From NCBI GenBank assembly GCA_964575865.1, contig CAZNSZ010000010.1, forward strand, positions 5,276-69,275: a stretch of DNA of 64,000 nucleotides, written 5' to 3'. The translations under genes were made by a program, and so were the position numbers. This document shows, piece after piece, positions 3,295 to 62,126 of this stretch. How positions within the stretch are numbered: the first letter of the stretch is position 1; each line of letters starts with the position of its first letter. Under the pieces are notes generated by a model. The model searched no databases and was not told the origin of the DNA. It saw only the letters and a program-made list of their open reading frames with translations. This DNA is from an uncultured Bacteroides sp. Its GTDB lineage: Bacteria > Bacteroidota > Bacteroidia > Bacteroidales > GCA-2748055.

Positions 3295-4765
3295 TCCCGT
3301 AGATCTTCTGAAAGTGATATCCGTAAATGGAGTAGGTAATGGCCATGGGAAAAAGCCGGGGCCGGTTCAGCAGGCTCCAGAAAAAGAGCTTCCAGTAGTA
3401 GATCCTTCCCCTGTTAAGGATCCCGATGTAGAAAAGTGACCTGAACAAGGCCATGATCCTTCCGGAATCCACTCTCCTCAGGTTCTGGGGTGCCGGCCTG
3501 AAATCCTTCAGGAACCGGATGAGCCGCCGGTAATAGGCTTTGCTGGAATAGATCCCCTGCAGGATCGAGTGGTAGCCGCTGATCAGGATCTCCCTGTCCA
3601 TTTTCGGGATGAAATTCATGGAAAGGTTGGTGTTGTTCCCGTCAAACCGGTTCAGGATCCGCCCCTCCTTCTTCAGTCGATCGTAAAGGCGGGTCCGGTT
3701 GGGTGCATTGAGCAATCCCACCATGGCGGTGATGATCCCGCTCTGACTGATGAAATCAATCTGGCGCTGAAAGATGCCGGGAGGATCCTGATCAAATCCG
3801 ACAATGAAACCGCCTGTTACCTCCATTCCGGCAGACTGGATCTTCTTTACGCTGGCCACCATATTGCGATCCAGGTTGTGGTTCTTGTCACATTGCGCCA
3901 GGCTCTCTTCATGGACGGTTTCGATCCCCACAAACACCCTTTCAAAGCCCGCTTCTGACATCAGTCGCATCAATTCCGGATCGTCCGACAGGTTGATGGA
4001 GGCTTCCGTTGTAAAGGTGAACGGGTAGTTGCGCGACCTGTTCCAGGCAATCATTTCCGGCAGCAACCTGTGCTTTAACTGGTGGCGGTTCCCGATGAAG
4101 TTGTCATCCACAAAGAAAAGGCTTCCGCGGAAGCCGGTTGCATAGATGACGTCCAGCTCCCTGAGGATCTGGTCCGGGCTTTTGATCCTTACTTTTCTTC
4201 CCAGCAGGGCGGTGATCTCGCAGAATTCACACTGGAAGGGACAACCCCTGGAGTATTGCAGGCTCAGCTGTGCGTAATGGTTCACGTTGATCAGGGAATA
4301 ATCGGGTGGCGGAGTTTTGCGCAGGTCTGCAAAACGACCGGTCCGGTAGATCCTTTGCGGATTTCCCCGTTCCAGGTCTTTCAGAAACAGGGGGAGCGTG
4401 ATCTCCGCTTCGTTGAGGATCAGGTGGTCCATCTGGGGGAAGGCTTCCGGATCACCCGTAAAGAGGGGACCGCCCCCTACCGTTTTTACCCCCAGCTCCC
4501 TGGCCCGTGTGATTACCTTCCTTACAGACTCTTCCTGTACCGACATGGCCGTGACGAAAATGAAATCGGCCCAGCGGATGGATGCTTCCGTCAGTTCCCC
4601 GGTATTGAGATCCACGAGCTTCCGGTTCCATGATTCCGGCAGCATGGCAGCGACCGTCAGCAGGCCCAGGGGAGGATTGGTGGCCTTTTTCCGGATGAAT
4701 TTCAATGCGTGACTGAAGCTCCAGTAGGTTTCGGGTATGGATGGATTGACAAGTAAAATATTCAT
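3287..4765 (-). CDS. B12-binding-domain radical SAM protein (class B, DUF4070-type C-terminus)
   Basis: ATG start. N-terminal Rossmann-like B12-binding region, radical-SAM motif CPFQCEFC (CxxxCxxC) and a long conserved C-terminal extension. The 3' end overlaps the convergent hydrolase gene by 8 nt. Confidence 0.8.
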   Translation of the reverse strand: MNILLVNPSIPETYWSFSHALKFIRKKATNPPLGLLTVAAMLPESWNRKLVDLNTGELTEASIRWADFIFVTAMSVQEESVRKVITRARELGVKTVGGGPLFTGDPEAFPQMDHLILNEAEITLPLFLKDLERGNPQRIYRTGRFADLRKTPPPDYSLINVNHYAQLSLQYSRGCPFQCEFCEITALLGRKVRIKSPDQILRELDVIYATGFRGSLFFVDDNFIGNRHQLKHRLLPEMIAWNRSRNYPFTFTTEASINLSDDPELMRLMSEAGFERVFVGIETVHEESLAQCDKNHNLDRNMVASVKKIQSAGMEVTGGFIVGFDQDPPGIFQRQIDFISQSGIITAMVGLLNAPNRTRLYDRLKKEGRILNRFDGNNTNLSMNFIPKMDREILISGYHSILQGIYSSKAYYRRLIRFLKDFRPAPQNLRRVDSGRIMALFRSLFYIGILNRGRIYYWKLFFWSLLNRPRLFPMAITYSIYGYHFQKIYGIR

Positions 4766-5897: not shown

Positions 5898-6290
5898 ATG
5901 AACCAGCTGACACTGACCACCCCGGCCCTGCTGTTCTCTGCCATCTCGCTCCTTTTGCTGGCCTATACGAACCGTTTTCTCACCTACGCCAATGTGGTGC
6001 GGAGTTTGCATGCCCGCTTCAAAGAGAACCGGGACAGTCTGATCATCGGGCAGATTCAGAACCTGCGTAAAAGGCTGGTGCTTACGCGGAGCATGCAGCT
6101 GCTGGGTATCGGCAGCCTGCTGCTGTGCGTGCTCTGCATGTTCCTTATATATGTGGAATTACAGGTTATGGCCGAAGTGATTTTCGGGATTGCACTGGTG
6201 ATGCTCATCCTCTCCCTGGCCATTTCCATCAGGGAGATCCAGATATCCGTCAGGGCACTGGATCTTCACCTGAGTGATATGGAATTGTGA
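5898..6290 (+). CDS. DUF2721-family membrane protein
   Basis: N-terminal TM followed by the NRF...R block, then two C-terminal TMs, as in DUF2721. It starts 11 nt after the AKR stop, so it is likely co-transcribed. A paralogue lies at 58481-58957. Confidence 0.65.
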   Translation: MNQLTLTTPALLFSAISLLLLAYTNRFLTYANVVRSLHARFKENRDSLIIGQIQNLRKRLVLTRSMQLLGIGSLLLCVLCMFLIYVELQVMAEVIFGIALVMLILSLAISIREIQISVRALDLHLSDMEL

Positions 6291-35567: not shown

Positions 35568-36050
35568 ATGACGGTAGCGGAGTATAACCATGCGGTGGAC
35601 CAGTACGCCGATGGGCTCTACAGGTTCGTGATCAAGAACCTGGGAGACGAACATTATTCAAGGGATGTGGTACAGGACACCTTTGAGAAACTCTGGGTAA
35701 GGCTGGAAACCGTCTCCTACCTGAAGGTGAAAACCTACCTGTTCACGGCCGCCTACCACACCATGATCGACCACATCCGGAAGGAGAAGAGGTACACAGG
35801 GCTGGCAGCCGGACATGATGAGAGGGAGGTTTCAGGGAGCTATTCCGATCTGGGTGAGGTGCTGGAAGGTGCCATTTCGAGGCTTCCCGAAGACCAGAGG
35901 GCAGTGGTGATGCTGAGGGATTATGAGGGGTATGCCTACCGGGAAATTGCGGAGATCACCGGCCTGAGCGAATCGCAGGTGAAGGTGTACATCTACAGGG
36001 CCAGGGTTTTCCTGAAACATTACATAGGAAGCATGGAGAAGGTGATATGA
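35568..36050 (+). CDS. ECF (sigma-70 family group IV) RNA polymerase sigma factor
   Basis: Region 2 (DVVQDTFEKLW) and region 4 HTH (YREIAEITGLSESQVKVYIYRAR). Confidence 0.9.
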   Translation: MTVAEYNHAVDQYADGLYRFVIKNLGDEHYSRDVVQDTFEKLWVRLETVSYLKVKTYLFTAAYHTMIDHIRKEKRYTGLAAGHDEREVSGSYSDLGEVLEGAISRLPEDQRAVVMLRDYEGYAYREIAEITGLSESQVKVYIYRARVFLKHYIGSMEKVI

Positions 36051-37174
36051 GCTTGAAGATCGACCGAAATAATTATGAAGCTTACCTGCTGGACCTCCTG
36101 GAAGGCAGGCTTTCTCAGGATGGAAGGCGCAGGTTGCGCGAATTCCTTTCCCGGCATCCGGATTGCGGTGCGGACCTGGAAGTGGAAGAGCTCTGGACCC
36201 TCGATCCCGGATCTGCCAGCTTTCCCGGAAAGCAGTCGTTGAAGAAAGAGATCCCCTCTCCGGGCCAGCCGATGCGGGGATCCCATTTCGGGTTGCTTTC
36301 CATAGCACGTCTGGAAGGGGACCTTTCTGAGGACCGGATCCGGGAGCACGAAGAGAAGGTGGCCGCCGACCGTTCCCTCCTGAAAGAATGGGAGGCGTGG
36401 CAACAGACCAGGCTGCCCCGCCGGAGCATACCGTTTCCCCGGAAGGAAGACCTTAAAAAGCCGGAGAAACACCGAAGGTTGATCCCGTGGGTGACCGTGT
36501 CCGCGGCTGCGGCTGCAATTGCCCTGCTGCTCGTTGTCCTGACCACCCGCACACCTTCCCCGCTCCCGATGAGCCAGGAGTATCCGGTCGTCCTTCCCGG
36601 ACATGAGCAGGAGAGAGCCGTGCCCGCCATGGTTCCGCCGCCGCTGCCGGATCCCTTGCCCGGGTTGAGCGGCGGAGAGGTCCGGGGTGCCGGCCTGGCC
36701 GCGGAACAGGCTCCTTCCAAAATTTCCACTCCGCTCCATCCTTCCGTCCGGCAGGCAGCAGCGGAGGATCCGGAAGCAGGGGGGGGGCGTGCACAGGTGG
36801 AGCATCCGGAGCACGACATGCCCCTTTTATCCCGGAGCATCCTGGCTGCCCGGCTGCCGGCGGCTCCGGTTCAGCCGGGGACCTATGACCGCATCAGGCC
36901 CCTTTATCTTCCCCCGTCCACTGTGAACCAAAGGAACATTTCACTGTCTTCCCTGGCAAGCATGGATCTGCAGGAGGTGGTGGAAGAATATGCCAGGGAG
37001 AAGGATCTCTCTTTATGGTCGGTGGCCAGTGCAGGCATCAGAGGGATCAACCGGATCACAGGATCCGACCTGCAGCTGTATGCCGCCCGGGATGAAGAGG
37101 GGGAAGTATCAGGTTTTCAGTTCAAATCCAGGAACCTGAATATTTCATCCCCCCTTGACAAGTCCGAAGATTAA
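36047..37174 (+). CDS. putative anti-sigma factor (single TM, P/A-rich periplasmic part)
   Basis: The start overlaps the sigma-factor stop (ATGA). The N-terminal ~60 aa form a cytoplasmic helix bundle. The TM is LIPWVTVSAAAAAIALLLVVL. The rest is low complexity. Confidence 0.55.
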   Translation: MSLKIDRNNYEAYLLDLLEGRLSQDGRRRLREFLSRHPDCGADLEVEELWTLDPGSASFPGKQSLKKEIPSPGQPMRGSHFGLLSIARLEGDLSEDRIREHEEKVAADRSLLKEWEAWQQTRLPRRSIPFPRKEDLKKPEKHRRLIPWVTVSAAAAAIALLLVVLTTRTPSPLPMSQEYPVVLPGHEQERAVPAMVPPPLPDPLPGLSGGEVRGAGLAAEQAPSKISTPLHPSVRQAAAEDPEAGGGRAQVEHPEHDMPLLSRSILAARLPAAPVQPGTYDRIRPLYLPPSTVNQRNISLSSLASMDLQEVVEEYAREKDLSLWSVASAGIRGINRITGSDLQLYAARDEEGEVSGFQFKSRNLNISSPLDKSED

Positions 37175-49579: not shown

Positions 49580-50638
49580 TCAGAAAGGGATCAGCGCCAG
49601 TCCCACGCTGAACGGATAGAGTTCGGGTCCCCGGTTCTCTTTGAACAGGGGCGTCATGTAGTAGTTGGCATACAGGTTGATGGCCCTGTACCCGATCCTG
49701 GCGGTAAATCCCCATCGCAGCGGACTCAGGTTATAGTCACCCCTCGCCTTCTCCTTCGATTTCTCGCCGCTGATCTTATATTTCAGTTTGGTATTGGACC
49801 ACATTTTTACCCCGCCGATCACCCCGCCGGAAATATGGATCCTTTTTTTGCCTGCAGGGATCTGAAATTCCAGCATCAGGGGGGCATACACATAGGCGAT
49901 GTTCATCTTTGATTTGATGATGTTGCCAGCGTAATCGGGGACATACGGGATGATGTTGCCCGTATCGGGATCTTTCCGGATGCTGTTCTGGCCATCGAAG
50001 TTGTAATTGATGAATTCAAATCCGAGCCCTGTGGCGAGTCCCACCTTGTCGGTTCCAAAGCCGAATCCGTAGTCGATCACATTGATGTTCCAGTTCCATG
50101 ATTTCCCGGTATTCAGTTCCATATAGCGCTCCTCCGGAGGCAGGCTCATGGACCAGTCCGGGGTCAGGAAGTTGTTCAGCCCAATTTCCAGTCCCGCAAA
50201 ATGGGGCCTGAATTTTTTCTTCCCGGGTGTGGGCGTTTTCTTCGGTTCATCCATCTCGATCACCTTGATCTCTGTTCCGTCTGAACCTTCCACAATACTG
50301 ATACCGCGGGAACCCAGTTTGACCTTCACGGTGTCCCCGTTCTCCTCCACGATCAGCAGTTCGTTTTCGCCCAGGGTCACCCTGGTGTGTTCCGGTGTTT
50401 CGATCACCTCGACCTTGTTCATTACCCGTACCGTGTCCTGCCGGTTCTCCGGCAGCGGGGCTTCCGGCTGATCTGCTTCTTCAGGAACCTCCGGAGCTTC
50501 TGAGGGCGCGGGGAGCTCTGCAGATTCAACGGCCTGTCCGGTCACCGGTTCCGGGTTCTCTGCCTGTTCTTCTGTCTGTTGTGCCTGTGCAGGGACCAGG
50601 AGCAGGCAGAAGAGCCAGGATAACATAACTTTTTGCAT
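49580..50638 (-). CDS. outer-membrane beta-barrel protein with acidic/Pro-rich N-terminal linker
   Basis: Signal peptide, an E/P/A-rich ~60-aa low-complexity region and a C-terminal ~200-aa barrel ending in GLALIPF. Confidence 0.6.
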   Translation of the reverse strand: MQKVMLSWLFCLLLVPAQAQQTEEQAENPEPVTGQAVESAELPAPSEAPEVPEEADQPEAPLPENRQDTVRVMNKVEVIETPEHTRVTLGENELLIVEENGDTVKVKLGSRGISIVEGSDGTEIKVIEMDEPKKTPTPGKKKFRPHFAGLEIGLNNFLTPDWSMSLPPEERYMELNTGKSWNWNINVIDYGFGFGTDKVGLATGLGFEFINYNFDGQNSIRKDPDTGNIIPYVPDYAGNIIKSKMNIAYVYAPLMLEFQIPAGKKRIHISGGVIGGVKMWSNTKLKYKISGEKSKEKARGDYNLSPLRWGFTARIGYRAINLYANYYMTPLFKENRGPELYPFSVGLALIPF

Positions 50639-50731: not shown

Positions 50732-53700
50732 TCAGAACCGCATGCCGATCACCACCACATCGTCGATCTGTTCATTTCCTTCCTTCCAGGCTTCAAAGGC
50801 ACGGTCCAGCAGATGGAACTGTTCCTTCATGGGGTGCAGGTGGTATGAGAGCAAAAGGTCCTTGAATCCTCTGTATTTCAGTTTCTTTCTTCTGGGTCCG
50901 CCGAACTGGTCAGCATAGCCGTCCGAGAAGATATAAATGCAATCCCCCGCCTTCAGTTTGATTTCATGCCGTGTAAAGGGATCCATGACCTCATGAATGG
51001 ATACCGGCATCTTATCGGTCTTATATTCGGTGAGCTCCTCATCCCTGATCAGGTAAAGGGGGTTGTTGGCACCCGCGAAGCCAAGCCGTCCGGTGCTGCG
51101 GTCGTATTTACAGATCACCATATCCATACCGTCTTTGGCTTCATCGGGATCCCCTTTCTGGTGCAGTGTTTCCATCACCTGGACCCTCAGTTCATTCAGC
51201 AATTCATCGGGCTCAATATGGGGATGATTGGTAACGATCTCCTGCAGCAGGCGGATCCCCAGCATGCTCATGAATGCTCCCGGGACTCCGTGGCCTGTAC
51301 AATCGGCTGCCACCACGTAAAAATGGTGAAGCTGGTCGCTGGTCCAGTAAAAATCACCGCTGACGATCTCCCTGGGCCTGAACAGGATAAAATGTTCCGG
51401 AAGCTGTTCTTCCAGCTGCCTGCCGGAAGGGAGCATGGAATTCTGAATGGTCTGGGCATAGCTGAGACTGTCCATGATCGCCTTCTGCTGCAGGGCGATC
51501 TGGTCACGCTGGGACCGGGCGAAATCACGCTGTGTCTCAATTTCGGTGTTGGCCACCTCCAGTTCCTGTGTCCGTTCACGGACCAGTTGTTCAAGTTTTT
51601 TCTTCTGTGCCTTGATAGAGCGGATCCTGATCCTGTAGGAAAGGAAAGTGACGCCCACAAAAGTCACCAGCAGCAGGGTTCTGAACAACCAGGTGTTGTA
51701 CCAGGCCTTCCGGATGGTGAATTCATATTTTTCCGCATATCCCCAGATGTTGTTTTTCCCTTTGGCCTTATAAATGAATTCATAGGTTCCCGGCGGCAGG
51801 TTGGAGTAGTACGCCTTGTATTCACTTCCGCGGTGGTAGGAGGAATACTGGTTCCCTGTCCCCCGGAGGTAATACTCATATTCGATGGAGGTTTCATCGG
51901 TGAACGAAAGGGCACTGATCTCGAATACAAAACTATTCTCATCATGGGCGAATACCCTTCCGTTCTCCGGGCGGATCCGTTCCCCGTTCAGGTACATTTT
52001 TTCGATGTAACATACCGGCGAATAATTCTGTGTGGTGGTGGCCCTGATGTTGAAATTGGAAACCCCGTGGTAGGTTCCCACCCAGAGCAGGTCGTCGTGG
52101 TCCAGGAAAAGGCCCCCGGGTGTGATCTCATTACCGCTGAGCCCGTCCTTGGTGTTGACATTGAACTCAAAATCCTTTGTTTCTGTATTGAAATAGATGA
52201 ACCCTTTGTTGGTGCCGAGCCAGAGGTAGTTCCTGTTCTTGGCAGGAAGGATCGATTTGATCACCATCTCCCTGTCGAAAGCAAACAGCTCCAGCTGGTC
52301 GAACCTTCCATCCTGCACCACCCCGATCCCGCAATCGGTACCCACCCAGACCCTGTCTCCGCTGTTTCTCAATGTCCAGATGCTGCATTCCGTTTCCTGC
52401 AGCAGTTCAAAGGTGGATCCGTTGAACCGGACAAACCCGTTGGTATTTCCCCCGATCACCTGGCCGTCCAGTTCGATCAGCTGGAAGATATTGCCTGTAT
52501 ACCTGTTCTTGAGCGGGATGGGCTGGGAGTTGAACTGTGGGAAATAATAGACGATCCCGTTGATTCCGGTAAGGAGAAAGATCTCGCCCCCGGAAGTGAC
52601 AAATATGTTCTCAATGGTAGGGGCCACCTGGTTAAACGGGGTGTGCCGCAGGATCTGCAGGGTCTGGCTGCTTACTTCGTAGAGACCGTCAATGCTGGCC
52701 AGCAGGATATTTCCATTGTCAAGGATGGTCCCGGTAAACTTGGTGCTCCCGGTTTCCAATTCCGGGGTGTAATTGATCAGCTGTCCGTCCCTCAGATAGA
52801 AGATCCCGTTATCGGAGGTGATCCAGATCCGGTTTTGGGGATCCTCAAAAATGGAATAGATGTAACTGTCGATGATCCCGGGGTAGAAATTCCGCAGCCC
52901 CCTGAGACTGGTGAGCCGTTGCACCCCTCCCGAAAACCCTATCCAGATGTTGTCTTCACGGTCAATGAGGAATGAGAGGATCTTGTTGTTCTTGATCCCG
53001 ATCTCCTGTCCGTATACAATGGGTTCCTGGTCGGTGGAAATGACCTGCATGATCTTCGAATCGGTCACCAGCCATACGGACCCGTACTGGTTGGTGGTGA
53101 TATCAGAAATGATGTTAACCGGGAACCGCAGTCTTTTGTTGAGGTTGTAAAGGGGTGAATCGAACCGGTGTTCAACGAGGTCGTCCAGATCGGTGATGCA
53201 GAGGCCGTCGCTGGTGGAGATCCAGAGGCTGTCATTCACATCAATAAAGAGCGAATAACTGCCGGTACTGCTGAGCTGTGTGACCTGTTCTTTCTCCCTG
53301 TCATAGAGGTAGACGCCCAGGATGGTGGCCATCAGGATGTTGCCCGTCCGGTTATCCTCCGTGAGATGGTATACGATGTCGGGCAGTACCGGAAACTCAT
53401 TGTTCATTACCCGGATCCTGCCTGCCGGGTCTTCCATGAACACCCCGTTGTTCCCCAGAAACCACCTGTTGTTCTCGGAATCAATAAAGATCTTGTTGAT
53501 GGGGATCCCTTCCAGCAGGACCTCCCGGGTGGTTTCATTGCTGAACCGGGCCACACCGCTGGAGGTGGCAAAATACATGTTCCCGCTGCTGTCCTGCTTG
53601 ATGTCGCGTACCGAATTGCCGGGCAGCCCCTGTTTGTGATCAAATACCACCATTTCGCGGCCATTGTAGCGGACCGCACCGGAATTGGTGCCGAACCAGA

Positions 53701-55381
53701 GATAGCCCCGGTAATCCTGGTATATGGAGAAGATATCCTCCTGGGGAAGGCCGTCGTCAGCTCCGTAATTGACATAGGGGAGCTGGCCGGTCTGAAAGCT
53801 TTCGTAGTAGCTGTGAAGAAATGCCTCCGGCGCCTGGAGCATATTGCCCCTGATCGCCTTCATCAGGCTTCCGATCAATCCCTGGCGCTGGGATCGGGTA
53901 ATGAATTTTTGAACCTCCTGCTGCAGCTGTGGCTGGTCTTTGCGCAGGGCCCAGCAGACATTCACCTGTCCCAGTTCCATTTTCACTTCCAGCTCAGGGA
54001 ACCCTGACAGTTCGTAGAAGGCATTGTAAAGGATGGTATAATCTGCCTTGCCCGATGCCACATCGGGGAGAAACTGGTCCACCTTGTTCTCATAGTAATA
54101 CCCGGTTATGCCGTTGTTATTGAGGATCTCTTCGTATACGCTCTCCGTGTTGGTCACCCCGGTATACCCTTTCAGATCCTCCAGACTCCGGATATCCGCC
54201 TCCTTTCTTGCCACCACCACAAATGCCGAGGGATATACGGGGACCAGGTCCACCTTTTTTTCCCGCCAGTCCAGCTGGGCGATCACCTCGCACGCCAGGT
54301 CAAAATAGTTGAACCACTCGGGGGTATAGGCGGAGTCCCTGAATACTTCACCTTCCCTGGTTTCCCAGTATTTTCCGAAGTATGGGGTTACCACGAACTC
54401 AAGGGATACGCCCAGGTAATCGGCAAACTCTTCGGCAAGGGCATGCATGAACTGTTTCTGCCCGCCTTCGCTGTATATGAAATTGCGGTCCCTCAGAGCC
54501 ACCACCAGTTTCCCTGACCGGAGGATCTCTTCCAGGTCCCGCTGATACCGCTCCTTTTTCAGGTTATTGTTGAGCTTCTCAATGTAAGAAGAGTAGGTGA
54601 TCCCGAATTTGCGGTAGAAGATTTCATCCAGGATGCCGTTGCTGGCAATGGTTTCGAAAAATCCCTCCACTTCCTGCATCAACGGATTGTTCTTCTCAAC
54701 TGCCCAGGCGCTTTTGGTGAGTTCGCTGATGGGGAAGGCGATCTGGTAATCCTGTCCGTTCCCCGCATTGAAGTTCAGTGCCTCGTCGGCATCCAGAACG
54801 ATTCCGAACACCCTTCCCTCTTCGATCAGCCGCTGCGTCTCCTGGCTGCTTTCGGTGGGGACCAGTTCCATTCCGCCACCGATCATTTCATTGATCTCCC
54901 GGAGGTGCTGTTCGAAGGTTGTGGCTTTCCTGTAGGCGATCCTCTTCCCTGCCAGCTCCTCAAAGCTCTGCGGCACAGCAAGATCCCTGGGAATCACCAG
55001 AAGTTCCGCCGATTCAAGGGTTTCGGCAAACCCAAACAGTTTTTTTCTCCAGTCGATGATGGTGAACGTGGAGCAGATGATATCTGCCTTTCTGAGGGCA
55101 TCCGGGGTATAGATCAGATCGGGATCGGTTTCCAGGCCGGGGGGAATCGTTCCATCCCTCATGAAGGCCTCATCCCAGTCAATGATGACTTCGATGAGCT
55201 CCACATTCAGGTACCGTGCAAACTCATGGGCCAGCTCATAATTGATGTTCTCCAGGTCATCCCTGGTAAAGGCCACATAGATTTTGCCGCTGCGTTTGAT
55301 CTCATCCAGGTTCCTGCTGTGGACAACAGCAGCCAGGACCAGCATGAGGATCACCAGTAGGATTCTCGGACGCCGTGCCAT
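50732..55381 (-). CDS. periplasmic mega-sensor PP2C phosphatase: 2x SBP(MltF-like) + Reg_prop propeller + Y_Y_Y + TM + SpoIIE/PP2C
   Basis: Two solute-binding-like domains are marked by SGKIYVAF...ELAHEFARYLNVELIEV and SGKLVVAL...ALAEEFADYLGVSLEFV. Many Reg_prop-like repeats follow, for example YRGYLWFGTNSGAVRYNG. A Y_Y_Y block (IEYEYYLRG...YKAYYSNLPPGTYEF) precedes one TM about 319 aa from the C-terminus and a coiled coil. The SpoIIE/PP2C blocks are SGDFYW, AADCTGHGVPGAFMS, FSDGYADQ and DDVVVIG. The ATG at 55381 shares one base with the upstream stop (TGATG). A GTG is possible at 55384. Confidence 0.8.
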   Translation of the reverse strand: MARRPRILLVILMLVLAAVVHSRNLDEIKRSGKIYVAFTRDDLENINYELAHEFARYLNVELIEVIIDWDEAFMRDGTIPPGLETDPDLIYTPDALRKADIICSTFTIIDWRKKLFGFAETLESAELLVIPRDLAVPQSFEELAGKRIAYRKATTFEQHLREINEMIGGGMELVPTESSQETQRLIEEGRVFGIVLDADEALNFNAGNGQDYQIAFPISELTKSAWAVEKNNPLMQEVEGFFETIASNGILDEIFYRKFGITYSSYIEKLNNNLKKERYQRDLEEILRSGKLVVALRDRNFIYSEGGQKQFMHALAEEFADYLGVSLEFVVTPYFGKYWETREGEVFRDSAYTPEWFNYFDLACEVIAQLDWREKKVDLVPVYPSAFVVVARKEADIRSLEDLKGYTGVTNTESVYEEILNNNGITGYYYENKVDQFLPDVASGKADYTILYNAFYELSGFPELEVKMELGQVNVCWALRKDQPQLQQEVQKFITRSQRQGLIGSLMKAIRGNMLQAPEAFLHSYYESFQTGQLPYVNYGADDGLPQEDIFSIYQDYRGYLWFGTNSGAVRYNGREMVVFDHKQGLPGNSVRDIKQDSSGNMYFATSSGVARFSNETTREVLLEGIPINKIFIDSENNRWFLGNNGVFMEDPAGRIRVMNNEFPVLPDIVYHLTEDNRTGNILMATILGVYLYDREKEQVTQLSSTGSYSLFIDVNDSLWISTSDGLCITDLDDLVEHRFDSPLYNLNKRLRFPVNIISDITTNQYGSVWLVTDSKIMQVISTDQEPIVYGQEIGIKNNKILSFLIDREDNIWIGFSGGVQRLTSLRGLRNFYPGIIDSYIYSIFEDPQNRIWITSDNGIFYLRDGQLINYTPELETGSTKFTGTILDNGNILLASIDGLYEVSSQTLQILRHTPFNQVAPTIENIFVTSGGEIFLLTGINGIVYYFPQFNSQPIPLKNRYTGNIFQLIELDGQVIGGNTNGFVRFNGSTFELLQETECSIWTLRNSGDRVWVGTDCGIGVVQDGRFDQLELFAFDREMVIKSILPAKNRNYLWLGTNKGFIYFNTETKDFEFNVNTKDGLSGNEITPGGLFLDHDDLLWVGTYHGVSNFNIRATTTQNYSPVCYIEKMYLNGERIRPENGRVFAHDENSFVFEISALSFTDETSIEYEYYLRGTGNQYSSYHRGSEYKAYYSNLPPGTYEFIYKAKGKNNIWGYAEKYEFTIRKAWYNTWLFRTLLLVTFVGVTFLSYRIRIRSIKAQKKKLEQLVRERTQELEVANTEIETQRDFARSQRDQIALQQKAIMDSLSYAQTIQNSMLPSGRQLEEQLPEHFILFRPREIVSGDFYWTSDQLHHFYVVAADCTGHGVPGAFMSMLGIRLLQEIVTNHPHIEPDELLNELRVQVMETLHQKGDPDEAKDGMDMVICKYDRSTGRLGFAGANNPLYLIRDEELTEYKTDKMPVSIHEVMDPFTRHEIKLKAGDCIYIFSDGYADQFGGPRRKKLKYRGFKDLLLSYHLHPMKEQFHLLDRAFEAWKEGNEQIDDVVVIGMRF

Positions 55382-55761
55382 CACTTTTCAAAAAACTCTT
55401 TCAGTCCCCCGAAATAGTATGCATCCCATCCGTGTGCCATGTCCTCGTAAGCATCATCCGGAATATGGGTGTGCAGCAATTCGATCCTGGTAAAATGCCG
55501 GTCCGGACGCAGGGTGATGGTGACGATCGATTTCTCGGGTTGATCCCCGAAAAACCACTCCTGTACAATCTGATGATCCTTCTCAAATGCGATGTTGATC
55601 CCTTCAATATCGCCGTCAAAAAGGGAGAAGGCCGATCCCGGTTCTTCCTTCATGACTGCCGCTCCCCCTGTCCACAGGGTGATGGAAAACGGATTGGTGA
55701 GTGCTGCATAAATCTCAGCAGGGGTACCTTTGATCCTGTAATATCTGTGAATTTCCTGCAT
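55381..55761 (-). CDS. SRPBCC-superfamily protein (AHSA1/START-like, 126 aa)
   Basis: The pattern IKGTPAEIYAALTNP...LW and a C-terminal GW..YY...LK helix are typical of Activator-of-Hsp90-ATPase-homologue-like SRPBCC proteins. Confidence 0.7.
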   Translation of the reverse strand: MQEIHRYYRIKGTPAEIYAALTNPFSITLWTGGAAVMKEEPGSAFSLFDGDIEGINIAFEKDHQIVQEWFFGDQPEKSIVTITLRPDRHFTRIELLHTHIPDDAYEDMAHGWDAYYFGGLKEFFEK

Positions 55762-55777
55762 TGGGTTCCGATATGAT

Positions 55778-55785
55778 CAAAAATA
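55778..55785 (-). promoter_or_regulatory. -7 box TATTTTTG for the SRPBCC / sensor-phosphatase operon
   Basis: CAAAAATA on the + strand, 16 nt upstream of the ATG at 55761. Confidence 0.45.
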
Positions 55786-58480: not shown

Positions 58481-58957
58481 CTATTCGACCGGTTTAAAGA
58501 CTTCCGAAATTTCGATCTTTACGATGCGGTAGCCTTTCCACACCTCCACTGCGGCAAAGATGATACCCACGAACACGGAAAACATCCCCGCAAAGAAAAA
58601 GGCAACGATCAGCCAGTCGAAACCGGGGGTCCGCTGGTTGATGGTCACCCCGATCAGCACCGAGCTGACGATGAATAGCGCCACTGCCAGCGAGTAACCG
58701 AATACGGCATTGCGCACCAGGGAGATGCGCTGGATCAGGTGACTTATCTGCAGTTCAATGTTATTCAACCTGTTGCTGTCAATGCTGTCCATTTTCTCCT
58801 GGTGGATGAGTTTCCGTTTTTCTTCATTCAGGAGCCTGATGCGGTTGACCACCAGGCTGTATTTATTGTTCATTCCCAGCAGAAGCAGTCCACACGCAGA
58901 GATCATGACGGCGGGTGCCAGCATTCCCTGGATCAGCTGAACGATGGGAGTGAGCAT
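58481..58957 (-). CDS. DUF2721-family membrane protein (second paralogue)
   Basis: Same TM, NRxxxL amphipathic helix and 2-TM layout as the gene at 5898-6290. Confidence 0.65.
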   Translation of the reverse strand: MLTPIVQLIQGMLAPAVMISACGLLLLGMNNKYSLVVNRIRLLNEEKRKLIHQEKMDSIDSNRLNNIELQISHLIQRISLVRNAVFGYSLAVALFIVSSVLIGVTINQRTPGFDWLIVAFFFAGMFSVFVGIIFAAVEVWKGYRIVKIEISEVFKPVE

Positions 58958-60400: not shown

Positions 60401-61753
60401 TTACTGAAGTGCAAAGGTTACCGGGAAGGTGAAAGCCACATTGACTGCAGTTCCCCGCTGCCTGCCTGGTTCCCAGGTTGGTGAGGAGGAGACCACCCGG
60501 ATCACTTCATCCTCCAGCATCTGTATGTATTTTTCTTCAGGCATTGGTTCCCCTTTTTCCAGTGGGCGGTAAGTGACGACCACCACCTCATCCAATGGTT
60601 TGCCTTCGATTTTTGCAAACGTCTCCAAATCGGGAACAATCACTTTTCCTTCTTTATTCACCACGAACTGGATAAAGATCCTTCCGGTAATGCCATTTTC
60701 GGCAGCTTCTTTGGGATATTTCACATTCTGGGCGATATACTTCCTGAAGTTGGCAGCCGGATCACCTCCCTCGAAGGTGGGCATCTCTTCAACCACCCTG
60801 AATACCAGTTCATCTGCAAGGGTGACATCGGGAATGATCCCGGATTCGTCCCCGCTTGGCTCCACTTCCTGCTCAATGGCCTGGTTTAAACGTGTTTCTT
60901 CGGTATCGGCGCATGATGCGATGATCAATGCGATGGCGACAACCGGGAAGAGGATGGTCAGTTTCCAGCCGCTTCCCAATTTATAATTCTTGTTTAGCAT
61001 GTTGATTCGGTTTTTAATTTGACTGCTGAATGAATTGTTTACGGAAGCGCTTCCTATATATTGGTTCAATATTGACAACTGGTATCTGATGGGATCGGTC
61101 CCCTTTCGGAGCATGGCTGAATCAGCCAGGAATTCAAGGTTTTCAATGACAGCTCGTCGAAACATCCAGGCCAGGGGATTGAACCAGTTCATAAGGACAA
61201 AAAGTTCAGTGAGCAACCTGTCAGCCGAATGCCACTGGTTTCTGTGAATCACTTCATGATCGAGAATATGGCCGAAGGAGTGTTCATCAGTGAGGGCCCT
61301 GTCAATGAAAATATAGCCGAAGAAGGAACTGGCATGCAGGCGTTTTCCGGTGAGAAAAGTGATCCCGTTGACCTTCAACTTTTCAGATTGGTGTGCGACC
61401 AGGATCACATGAACCAGTTGGATACATAACCTCAGGATTCCAAGCACCAGTACCCCTGCATACAGGAATCCCAGCCACTGTGTCCACAAGAGGGACGATG
61501 TTGCCTGCATCCCTGTTCCTGATCCGGTGACGACAATTCCTTCCAGATGTATCGTTGGCAAAGCGCCCTGCAGGGTCGACCCTACCCGGAGTGAAGGGAT
61601 CAGGGGGACGACAGCCATGAAAAGAATGCTTCCGACCAGGTAAATTCTCCGGACAATGAAATTTTTGTCTTTTACGAACAGGAACTTATAGGCTGCGAAA
61701 AAAAACACCATAGCCAGATTAAGCTCCAACAGGTAATTCATAAAGCTATTCAT
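60401..61753 (-). CDS. M56 (BlaR1-like) signal-transducing metallopeptidase fused to a TonB C-terminal domain
   Basis: 4-TM N-terminus with the zinc motif HEVIHRNQWH (HExxH). The C-terminal ~90 aa have a TonB_C pattern (YPKEAAENGITGRIFIQFVVNKEGKV). It overlaps blaI-like gene by 8 nt. Confidence 0.85.
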   Translation of the reverse strand: MNSFMNYLLELNLAMVFFFAAYKFLFVKDKNFIVRRIYLVGSILFMAVVPLIPSLRVGSTLQGALPTIHLEGIVVTGSGTGMQATSSLLWTQWLGFLYAGVLVLGILRLCIQLVHVILVAHQSEKLKVNGITFLTGKRLHASSFFGYIFIDRALTDEHSFGHILDHEVIHRNQWHSADRLLTELFVLMNWFNPLAWMFRRAVIENLEFLADSAMLRKGTDPIRYQLSILNQYIGSASVNNSFSSQIKNRINMLNKNYKLGSGWKLTILFPVVAIALIIASCADTEETRLNQAIEQEVEPSGDESGIIPDVTLADELVFRVVEEMPTFEGGDPAANFRKYIAQNVKYPKEAAENGITGRIFIQFVVNKEGKVIVPDLETFAKIEGKPLDEVVVVTYRPLEKGEPMPEEKYIQMLEDEVIRVVSSSPTWEPGRQRGTAVNVAFTFPVTFALQ

Positions 61754-62126
61754 CGATCCCGGATTTGTGTTTGAGCTCTTCCATCAGTTGAATGATCTCA
61801 TCGGCCTCCTTTACATTCAGAGAACCGTTGCTGCCGAAATGGGAAAGCACCTGCTTCATGGAGTTGTTGAAATAGTCCTCCATCAGGCTGGAAAAGCGCT
61901 CGTGCCTGTAGCGGTCCCTGCTGATCAGAGGATAGTACTGGTGGGATTTACCGAAGCTCCTGTGGCCCACAAATCCTTTCTTTTCAAGGATCCGGATGAT
62001 GGTCGAAACCGTATTGTATGCGGGCTTGGGTTCCGGGAAATATTCCAGCAGGTCCCTGACGAATCCCTCCTTTTCGTTCCAGAGGATCTGCATCACCTGT
62101 TCTTCGGCTTTGGTCAGCGTGTTCAT
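61746..62126 (-). CDS. BlaI/MecI/CopY-family transcriptional repressor
   Basis: The winged-helix N-terminus is LTKAEEQVMQILW...YNTVSTIIRILEKKGFV. Confidence 0.9.
   Translation of the reverse strand: MNTLTKAEEQVMQILWNEKEGFVRDLLEYFPEPKPAYNTVSTIIRILEKKGFVGHRSFGKSHQYYPLISRDRYRHERFSSLMEDYFNNSMKQVLSHFGSNGSLNVKEADEIIQLMEELKHKSGIDE

Follow-up and report, generated by a model that had tools for sequence, protein, structure and literature searches.

A conserved two-gene unit encoding an Aha1-like SRPBCC protein and a SiaA-type sensor phosphatase in uncultured Bacteroidales

We analysed a stretch of 64,000 nucleotides (nt) from an uncultured Bacteroides sp. (GenBank assembly GCA_964575865.1, contig CAZNSZ010000010.1, positions 5,276 to 69,275; hereafter the window), in which two adjacent genes encode a small AHSA1/SRPBCC protein of 126 amino acids (aa) and a sensor of 1,549 aa with a SpoIIE/PP2C phosphatase domain. 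An earlier interpretation made from the letters alone (the sequence-only reading) had proposed that both genes form an operon, and that the small protein is either a partner or a small-molecule-gated regulator of the phosphatase. Comparison with related loci revealed a real, lineage-specific two-gene unit in uncultured Bacteroidales with a variant SiaA-type partner-switch phosphatase.

The gene pair and its products

Both genes lie on the reverse strand, to which all coordinates of the pair refer. The TGA stop codon (55383-55381) of the small gene (55381-55761) shares its A with the ATG (55381-55379) of the sensor gene (50732-55381, stop codon at 50732-50734 included), which gives a TGATG overlap at 55379-55383. 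A putative -7 promoter box of the Bacteroidota type TAnnTTTG (TATTTTTG, 55778-55785) is located 16 nt upstream of the small-gene ATG. The one-base overlap of a 126-aa AHSA1/SRPBCC gene with the sensor start and the box at this distance had both been described in the sequence-only reading, and the coordinates of the open reading frame (ORF), the junction and the box agree with it. TAnnTTTG has 24 matches in the window, compared with 14.4 expected; scans of the locus for sigma-70 promoters and terminators gave nothing above shuffled sequences and are uninformative for Bacteroidota. Judged from its sequence, the small gene encodes a cytoplasmic SRPBCC protein resembling the Aha1 C-terminal domain, has a predicted promoter of its own and is immediately followed by the sensor gene, with which it is probably transcribed. 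A 133-aa ORF on the forward strand (55375-55776) is the antisense shadow of the small gene. That the small gene itself is a chance ORF was considered and rejected, as the protein is conserved in more than 130 loci and its structural model is confident.

Pfam assigned residues 13-125 of the small protein to AHSA1 (PF08327; 66.5 bits, cut-off 22.1) and to AHSA1 only, with no match to Polyketide_cyc2 or to the Aha1 N-terminal domain; hydropathy analysis revealed no hydrophobic segment. The AlphaFold2 model, calculated with 33 homologues, reached a pLDDT of 91.4 and displayed the helix-grip order beta-alpha-alpha-beta6-alpha. Foldseek comparison placed the C-terminal domain of human Aha1 first (8z3h; TM-score 0.90, root-mean-square deviation 1.7 A, 25% identity), followed by further Aha1 C-terminal domains (3ni8, 1x53, 6xle; TM-scores 0.88-0.90, deviations 1.5-1.9 A) and then by the bacterial AHSA1 structures 3q63 and 4fpw (TM-scores of bacterial AHSA1 proteins 0.82-0.85). 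A sequence profile search of the PDB also detected Aha1 C-terminal domains (E 5e-12), and some of the best of these matches are Hsc82-bound structures. These domains, which are thus the best matches in sequence and structure, are similar in length to the small protein and have the motifs DG..G and GW..YYF in common with it. In contrast to eukaryotic Aha1, the window protein is bacterial, stands alone and is encoded beside a sensor phosphatase gene rather than Hsp90. The SRPBCC fold that had been proposed for it was borne out by the AHSA1 score, the model and the structural match.

The sensor starts with a signal peptide or N-terminal anchor (residues 1-22, 55316-55381; hydropathy peak at residues 7-25). 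The first periplasmic domain (approximately residues 25-270, 54572-55309) is SBP_bac_3-like, with matches to TIGR01096, ArtJ and cystine-SBP at residues 96-261 and to amino-acid-binding proteins in the PDB. The second (approximately residues 271-510, 53852-54571) is SBP_bac_3/MltF-like (Pfam SBP_bac_3 at 314-506, NCBIfam MltF at 271-508). It is followed by a Reg_prop beta-propeller region with approximate boundaries (about residues 511-1120, 52022-53851; 89.3 bits) and by a Y_Y_Y Ig-like domain (residues 1160-1224, 51710-51904), whose Pfam score of 25.8 bits lies 0.8 bits under the cut-off of 26.6. This stretch aligned to structures of hybrid two-component systems (HTCS), and precomputed PF07495 matches exist for many homologues. 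The periplasmic part matched the HTCS sensor structures 3v9f and 4a2l (E about 1e-33) as well as amino-acid-binding proteins. A single internal transmembrane (TM) helix (residues 1230-1250, 51632-51694; hydropathy) leads to a cytoplasmic helical linker, presumably a coiled coil (residues 1251-1320, 51422-51631), which aligns with the linker of 6k4e and is highly conserved (LEQxVRERTxELExANxEIEAQRD), and to a SpoIIE/PP2C domain of the SiaA type (residues 1353-1548, 50738-51325; Pfam SpoIIE 77.3 bits). Since hydropathy analysis revealed two hydrophobic segments only (residues 7-25 and 1230-1248), about 1,200 residues are predicted to be periplasmic and about 300 cytoplasmic. In the Pfam search SpoIIE was the sole cytoplasmic domain, and a HisKA-HATPase-REC-AraC output was absent. 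Pfam, NCBIfam, PDB matches and hydropathy together agree with the order of two SBP domains, Reg_prop, Y_Y_Y, one TM helix and PP2C that had been read from the translation, and with PP2C as the only output. At least 120 clusters make up the sensor family, with 56-85% identity and lengths of about 1,547 aa; every one stems from uncultured Bacteroidales/Bacteroidota. In seven loci (L049, L052, L055, L063, L064, L071, L076) the sensor frame is split into at least two ORFs; three of these (L049, L055, L064) belong to a single assembly project (MFD isolates) and the remaining ones to unrelated assemblies of metagenome-assembled genomes (MAGs), and the splits are probably assembly frameshifts rather than pseudogenes.

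Residues 1254-1549 matched the C-terminal half of the NCBIfam SiaA model (positions 377-657) with 176 bits, and residues 1263-1549 the SiaA-PP2C crystal sequence 6k4e (E 5.7e-37). The metal-binding aspartate motifs (DCTGHG, DGMD, SDG, DD) do not vary among 15 homologues. Equivalence to full-length SiaA fails, with 176 bits set against an equivalog cut-off of 700 and the N-terminal 1,250 residues unrelated; no HAMP domain was detected in the sensor with Pfam or NCBIfam. On these alignments it is highly probable that the sensor is a SiaA-type PP2C joined to a giant periplasmic sensor. In P. aeruginosa, SiaA dephosphorylates SiaC-pT68, SiaB is the SiaC kinase, and SiaC has an anti-sigma-factor-antagonist-like fold (PMC7647112). 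The linker and PP2C of the window protein and of SiaA from the SiaABCD system (PP2C, kinase, phosphoprotein and the diguanylate cyclase SiaD; PMC7647112) are alike, and both are membrane-anchored sensor phosphatases. SiaA has a small periplasmic loop, whereas the window protein displays a 1,200-residue SBP-SBP-propeller-Y_Y_Y input and lacks HAMP. The window contains no siaB, siaC or siaD; an SRPBCC gene is found upstream of the sensor instead.

The input part resembles that of Bacteroides HTCS (e.g. BT4663; PDB 4a2l, 3v9f), which likewise combine periplasmic Reg_prop propellers with Y_Y_Y and a single TM helix after Y_Y_Y. Here the output is PP2C, not HisKA-HATPase-REC-AraC, and two N-terminal SBP_bac_3 domains are added. 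Chlamydia RsbU, a further TM PP2C, likewise binds its ligand with a periplasmic sensor domain and signals into a partner-switch pathway; it differs in its small Cache-like sensor, in its STAS substrates RsbV1 and RsbV2 and in having no SRPBCC neighbour.

Conservation of the pair

Related loci were collected with a sensor-side scan of species-representative genomes (75 loci), in which the small gene was found with its own hidden Markov model (HMM), and with a small-protein-side scan of metagenomes (80 loci). In 56 of the 75 genome loci the SRPBCC gene is located directly upstream of the sensor on the same strand; apart from one paralogue clade, all informative ingroup sensors with 55% identity or more are among them. 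The gene is missing from 19 loci; in six of them the upstream sequence is truncated, and a seventh extends only about 330 nt ahead of the sensor. The remainder are four loci of a paralogue clade nested beside the clade of the window (L022, L027, L029, L033), four relatives with 48-53% identity (L059, L061, L071, L076) and four outgroup loci with 42-43% (L054, L062, L065, L074). The MAGs with paralogues also hold an SRPBCC-linked copy (L033 with L055, L027 with L058, L022 with L053), and in MAG CSMAG_1968 (L029) a second copy is represented by its SRPBCC-linked start (L069). Exactly in the SRPBCC position upstream of the sensor, L059 carries a HepT/MNT-type toxin-antitoxin pair (NTase_sub_bind and Polbeta, 3779-4535).

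With both scans combined, the small gene is directly followed by the sensor in 109 of the 124 informative loci. Conservation of the adjacency in relatives had been named beforehand as a check, and this count, together with gaps that do not exceed 6 nt for 83 of the 109 pairs, supports the operon-like unit that had been proposed. The pairs are spaced by a TGATG overlap in three cases (the window, L079 and L052), by 2-6 nt in 80 (exactly 5 nt in 51) and by 55-164 nt in 26. The long gaps occur only in more divergent clades, often with near-consensus promoter boxes, and the sensor may have its own promoter in these lineages. A TAnnTTTG box is present 15-18 nt upstream of the small-gene ATG in 62 of 132 related loci. 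Among the matches listed, the small protein is 73-91% identical and the sensor 56-85%.

Two clades share the whole neighbourhood of the window, with DUF3160, DUF2721, TPR and BlaR/BlaI-like genes on one side and genes for a 352-aa protein, Peptidase_S51, an AsmA-like protein, a histidine kinase and Peptidase_U32 on the other. In the clade L003/L034/L036/L037/L050/L060 only the small gene is kept, plus DUF2721 a few kb upstream in all but L050, the one without enough upstream sequence to show it. The clade L038-L041/L067/L077 also keeps only the small gene; L043 additionally has Peptidase_U32 about 6 kb downstream of the sensor. The pair thus outlasts every other adjacency, with constant order and orientation. 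The trees of small protein and sensor are broadly congruent, which suggests one origin of the adjacency and several losses. A second, older association of the small gene may be with an MFS_1 gene, which lies directly upstream on the same strand in one sensor-linked clade (L038-L041/L067/L077 including L043; L038 6151-7494, L043 6169-7530) and in one sensor-less locus (L140 4552-5880).

Partner genes and the role of the small protein

A search for STAS, RsbW, SiaB and SiaC genes revealed none in the window (Pfam on 20 small ORFs; SiaB and SiaC HMMs on ORFs of at least 60 aa), and STAS and RsbW-type genes were also missing among the immediate neighbours of the pair. The sequence-only reading had rightly noted that STAS and RsbW genes are lacking nearby. 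It had further taken the missing partner as a pointer to a partner role of the SRPBCC protein; this step is not upheld, as the PP2C is of the SiaA type and its outgroup relatives are flanked by SiaB and SiaC. The outgroup sensors (42-43% identity, same architecture) lack the SRPBCC gene and adjoin genes for a SiaB-family kinase and SiaC (L054, L065, L074). The genes before them are, in order, a SiaB-family kinase, SiaC, a second SiaB-family kinase, a second SiaC and a TPR-linked SiaA-type phosphatase. The DUF6272 proteins of the outgroup scored 130.7 bits against NCBIfam SiaB_fam_kinase (cut-off 85), and the SiaC proteins 118-138 bits with Pfam SiaC. The cluster (L054 4380-8846 and 16000-17526, reverse strand; L065; L074) is an expanded SiaABC-type partner-switch locus in Bacteroidales. 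A gene close by encodes a 508-aa protein in which a SiaC domain is joined to two SiaB-like domains. SiaB and SiaC beside the outgroup sensors imply that a canonical kinase and phosphoprotein set exists for this phosphatase family; judged from these loci, it is probably encoded elsewhere in the genome, which we hold to be more likely than its replacement by the SRPBCC protein. The SRPBCC gene and SiaB/SiaC never occur together within 8 kb. The sole sigma factor found in the window is of the extracytoplasmic function (ECF) type (35568-36050), 20 kb from the pair; it is followed by a gene for 375 aa (35568-37174 for both, forward strand).

A possible link to the cytoplasmic module was analysed in the paralogue clade. 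Among SRPBCC-linked sensors the cytoplasmic 300 residues showed 67.1 +/- 6.3% identity at a matched periplasmic identity of 62-75%. For the SRPBCC-less paralogues (L022, L027, L029, L033) compared with these sensors the cytoplasmic identity was 48.5 +/- 2.0%, again with 62-75% in the periplasmic part, and it was about 48% in the comparison with the copies of the same MAGs (L053, L058, L069, L055). In a tree calculated from just the cytoplasmic part, the paralogues fall outside the ingroup. The loss of the SRPBCC neighbour is hence accompanied by a change in the output module, with the sensor part retained, and the alignments suggest either an output swap or rapid divergence after duplication.

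Our favoured explanation, to which we give a probability of about 0.5 as a whole, is a SiaA-type sensor phosphatase with remotely encoded SiaB and SiaC and with the small protein as a co-expressed accessory. Binding of a ligand in the periplasm would alter the geometry of the sensor dimer, and this change would be passed through the single TM helix and the helical linker of about 70 residues to the PP2C dimer, by which the phosphatase is switched. Switching through dimer and linker is the mechanism described for SiaA, RsbU and RsbP. The substrate would be a SiaC-family (STAS-like) phosphoprotein and its kinase a member of the SiaB family, both encoded elsewhere in the genome; we infer this remote substrate because deeper-branching sensor homologues adjoin SiaB and SiaC genes. 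The small protein would act in the same pathway, most probably by binding the linker-PP2C module or its substrate and tuning the output. As the 300-residue linker-PP2C is the only cytoplasmic surface of the sensor, it is the only part that the small protein could contact. That the small protein is functionally linked to the pathway in some way has, in our estimate, slightly better than even odds, while its direct regulation of the PP2C is doubtful. It is unlikely that the Aha1-like protein binds the linker-PP2C and gates its activity, possibly through an intracellular ligand, as a START-PP2C pair independent of the plant PYL-PP2C pair: such a mechanism is proposed from gene order, and several tests gave it no support.

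Several results weigh against the favoured explanation. The SRPBCC-less sensors L042, L059 and L061 keep the ingroup-type cytoplasmic module. A mirror-tree analysis of 43 pairs gave r = 0.75 for small protein and cytoplasmic part, 0.90 for small protein and periplasmic part, and a partial correlation of -0.32 for small protein and cytoplasmic part given the periplasmic part; the distances of the small protein track the periplasmic part, which follows phylogeny, and specific co-evolution with the cytoplasmic module received no support. When 1.84 billion representatives were searched with a profile, the 150 best of the family contained no SRPBCC-PP2C fusion. The wider small-protein family is mostly stand-alone (about 125-135 aa), its long members being GST-AHSA1, Aha1_N-AHSA1 and DUF6958-AHSA1 proteins. 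HMMs built from the outgroup SiaB and SiaC matched neither the window nor any SRPBCC-linked locus (the loci were searched, not whole genomes). The small gene occurs without the sensor in 15 of 124 loci from five small subclades, where the protein is well conserved and the neighbours are an outer-membrane beta-barrel protein, an upstream MFS transporter, a TPR hybrid histidine kinase or GPR1/FUN34, and distant relatives of the small protein (P0241, P0243) are found in unrelated gene contexts. Because 26 gaps of 55-164 nt have promoter-like boxes, co-transcription is not universal, and with a single origin the 109 loci are not independent events. The START-PP2C version in particular is confronted with PYL1 at Foldseek rank 46 (TM-score 0.75, 10% identity). 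A literature search detected nothing relevant on bacterial SRPBCC with PP2C, on Y_Y_Y with SpoIIE or on partner switching in Bacteroidetes.

Several of these points are what would be expected if there were no mechanistic coupling at all and the small gene encoded an independent ligand-binding or stress protein that once acquired the sensor as a neighbour and was kept there by inherited order and a shared promoter. The single origin suggested by the trees, the 15 well-conserved orthologue loci without sensor, the unrelated contexts of distant family members, the lack of PP2C fusions and of specific co-evolution, and the three SRPBCC-less sensors with the same cytoplasmic module all fit such a history. 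However, the pair survives full turnover of both flanks in two clades, its spacing is 6 nt or less in 83 of 109 pairs with an overlap in three, its orientation is constant, and conservation among the matches listed is higher for the small protein than for the sensor; we therefore regard an uncoupled neighbour as possible but rather improbable. At the opposite end, the small protein could act like PYR/PYL and regulate the PP2C in a ligand-gated manner by binding directly to its catalytic domain, which would add an intracellular small-molecule input. The plant PYR/PYL/RCAR-PP2C system likewise pairs an SRPBCC/START-superfamily protein with a PP2C-fold phosphatase, and the conserved operon with a sensor whose only cytoplasmic part is linker-PP2C, as well as the different cytoplasmic module of the SRPBCC-less paralogues, would suit this role. 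RsbQ-RsbP of the B. subtilis energy stress response offers a bacterial precedent for a small-molecule-binding accessory of a PP2C: the small, cavity-bearing RsbQ is encoded just upstream of the partner-switch PP2C and is required for it. This two-gene operon is the closest functional precedent in bacteria, but RsbQ belongs to the alpha/beta hydrolases, RsbP is a soluble PAS-domain protein, and the requirement for RsbQ is shown there, whereas the pair described here is known from its genes. The plant analogy drawn in the sequence-only reading holds at the level of the SRPBCC superfamily; beyond that it does not, since the small protein is nearer to Aha1 C-terminal domains than to PYL1, belongs to AHSA1 and not to Bet v 1/Polyketide_cyc2, and lacks the gate motif SGLPA and the latch motif HRL, and since the PP2C belongs to the bacterial SpoIIE/SiaA branch. 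The domain is also compact at 126 aa and shows no co-evolution signal, and a PYR/PYL-like regulator appears quite unlikely.

Still less probable, to a degree that we consider it very improbable, is that the SRPBCC protein has replaced SiaC in this lineage as phosphoprotein substrate and switch partner. Such a replacement would explain why SiaB and SiaC flank the outgroup sensors and SRPBCC the ingroup, never together within 8 kb, and three residues (Ser46, Ser78, Thr91) do not vary among 23 divergent pairs. Yet Thr91 is also present in human Aha1 and is thus a family feature, no kinase gene is conserved beside the pair, and the SRPBCC fold is unrelated to STAS/SiaC; the SRPBCC-less paralogues of the same genomes also have no SiaB or SiaC nearby, so that remote partners are the rule. 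The best matches to Aha1 C-terminal domains, Hsc82-bound ones included, would finally be consistent with an Aha1-like action on HtpG, or with a chaperone that helps to fold or assemble the large sensor without any part in signalling. We give this the least credence, as the Aha1 N-terminal domain, which provides most of the affinity for Hsp90, is absent, most of the sensor folds in the periplasm, and we know of no established bacterial HtpG co-chaperone of the Aha1 type.

If the small protein regulates the phosphatase, the pair would provide a second and independent example of PP2C control by a START-fold protein and would add a new kind of accessory to bacterial partner-switch signalling, by which an internal cue is combined with a very large periplasmic sensor. 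Even without such regulation, the locus displays an HTCS carbohydrate-sensing module rewired to SiaA-type Ser/Thr phosphatase signalling in uncultured Bacteroidales that form a widespread group, and the nested paralogue clade, with sensor kept and cytoplasmic module changed, represents a natural experiment on output specificity.

Genes around the pair

In 45 loci a DUF2721 membrane-protein gene precedes the pair at a distance of 3-6 kb (window 58481-58957, reverse strand; L003 1351-1815; also L034, L036, L037 and L060), and the window contains a second DUF2721 paralogue 50 kb away (5898-6290, forward strand). In the conserved synteny block of the window, a BlaI-like gene (Penicillinase_R) overlaps a BlaR1-like gene (Peptidase_M56 and TonB_C; 60401-62126 for both, reverse strand). 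Downstream of the sensor, at a distance of 93 nt and on the same strand, lies the gene for the 352-aa protein (49580-50638), which has no Pfam or NCBIfam match and is kept at this position in 35 loci of the two clades with the synteny of the window.

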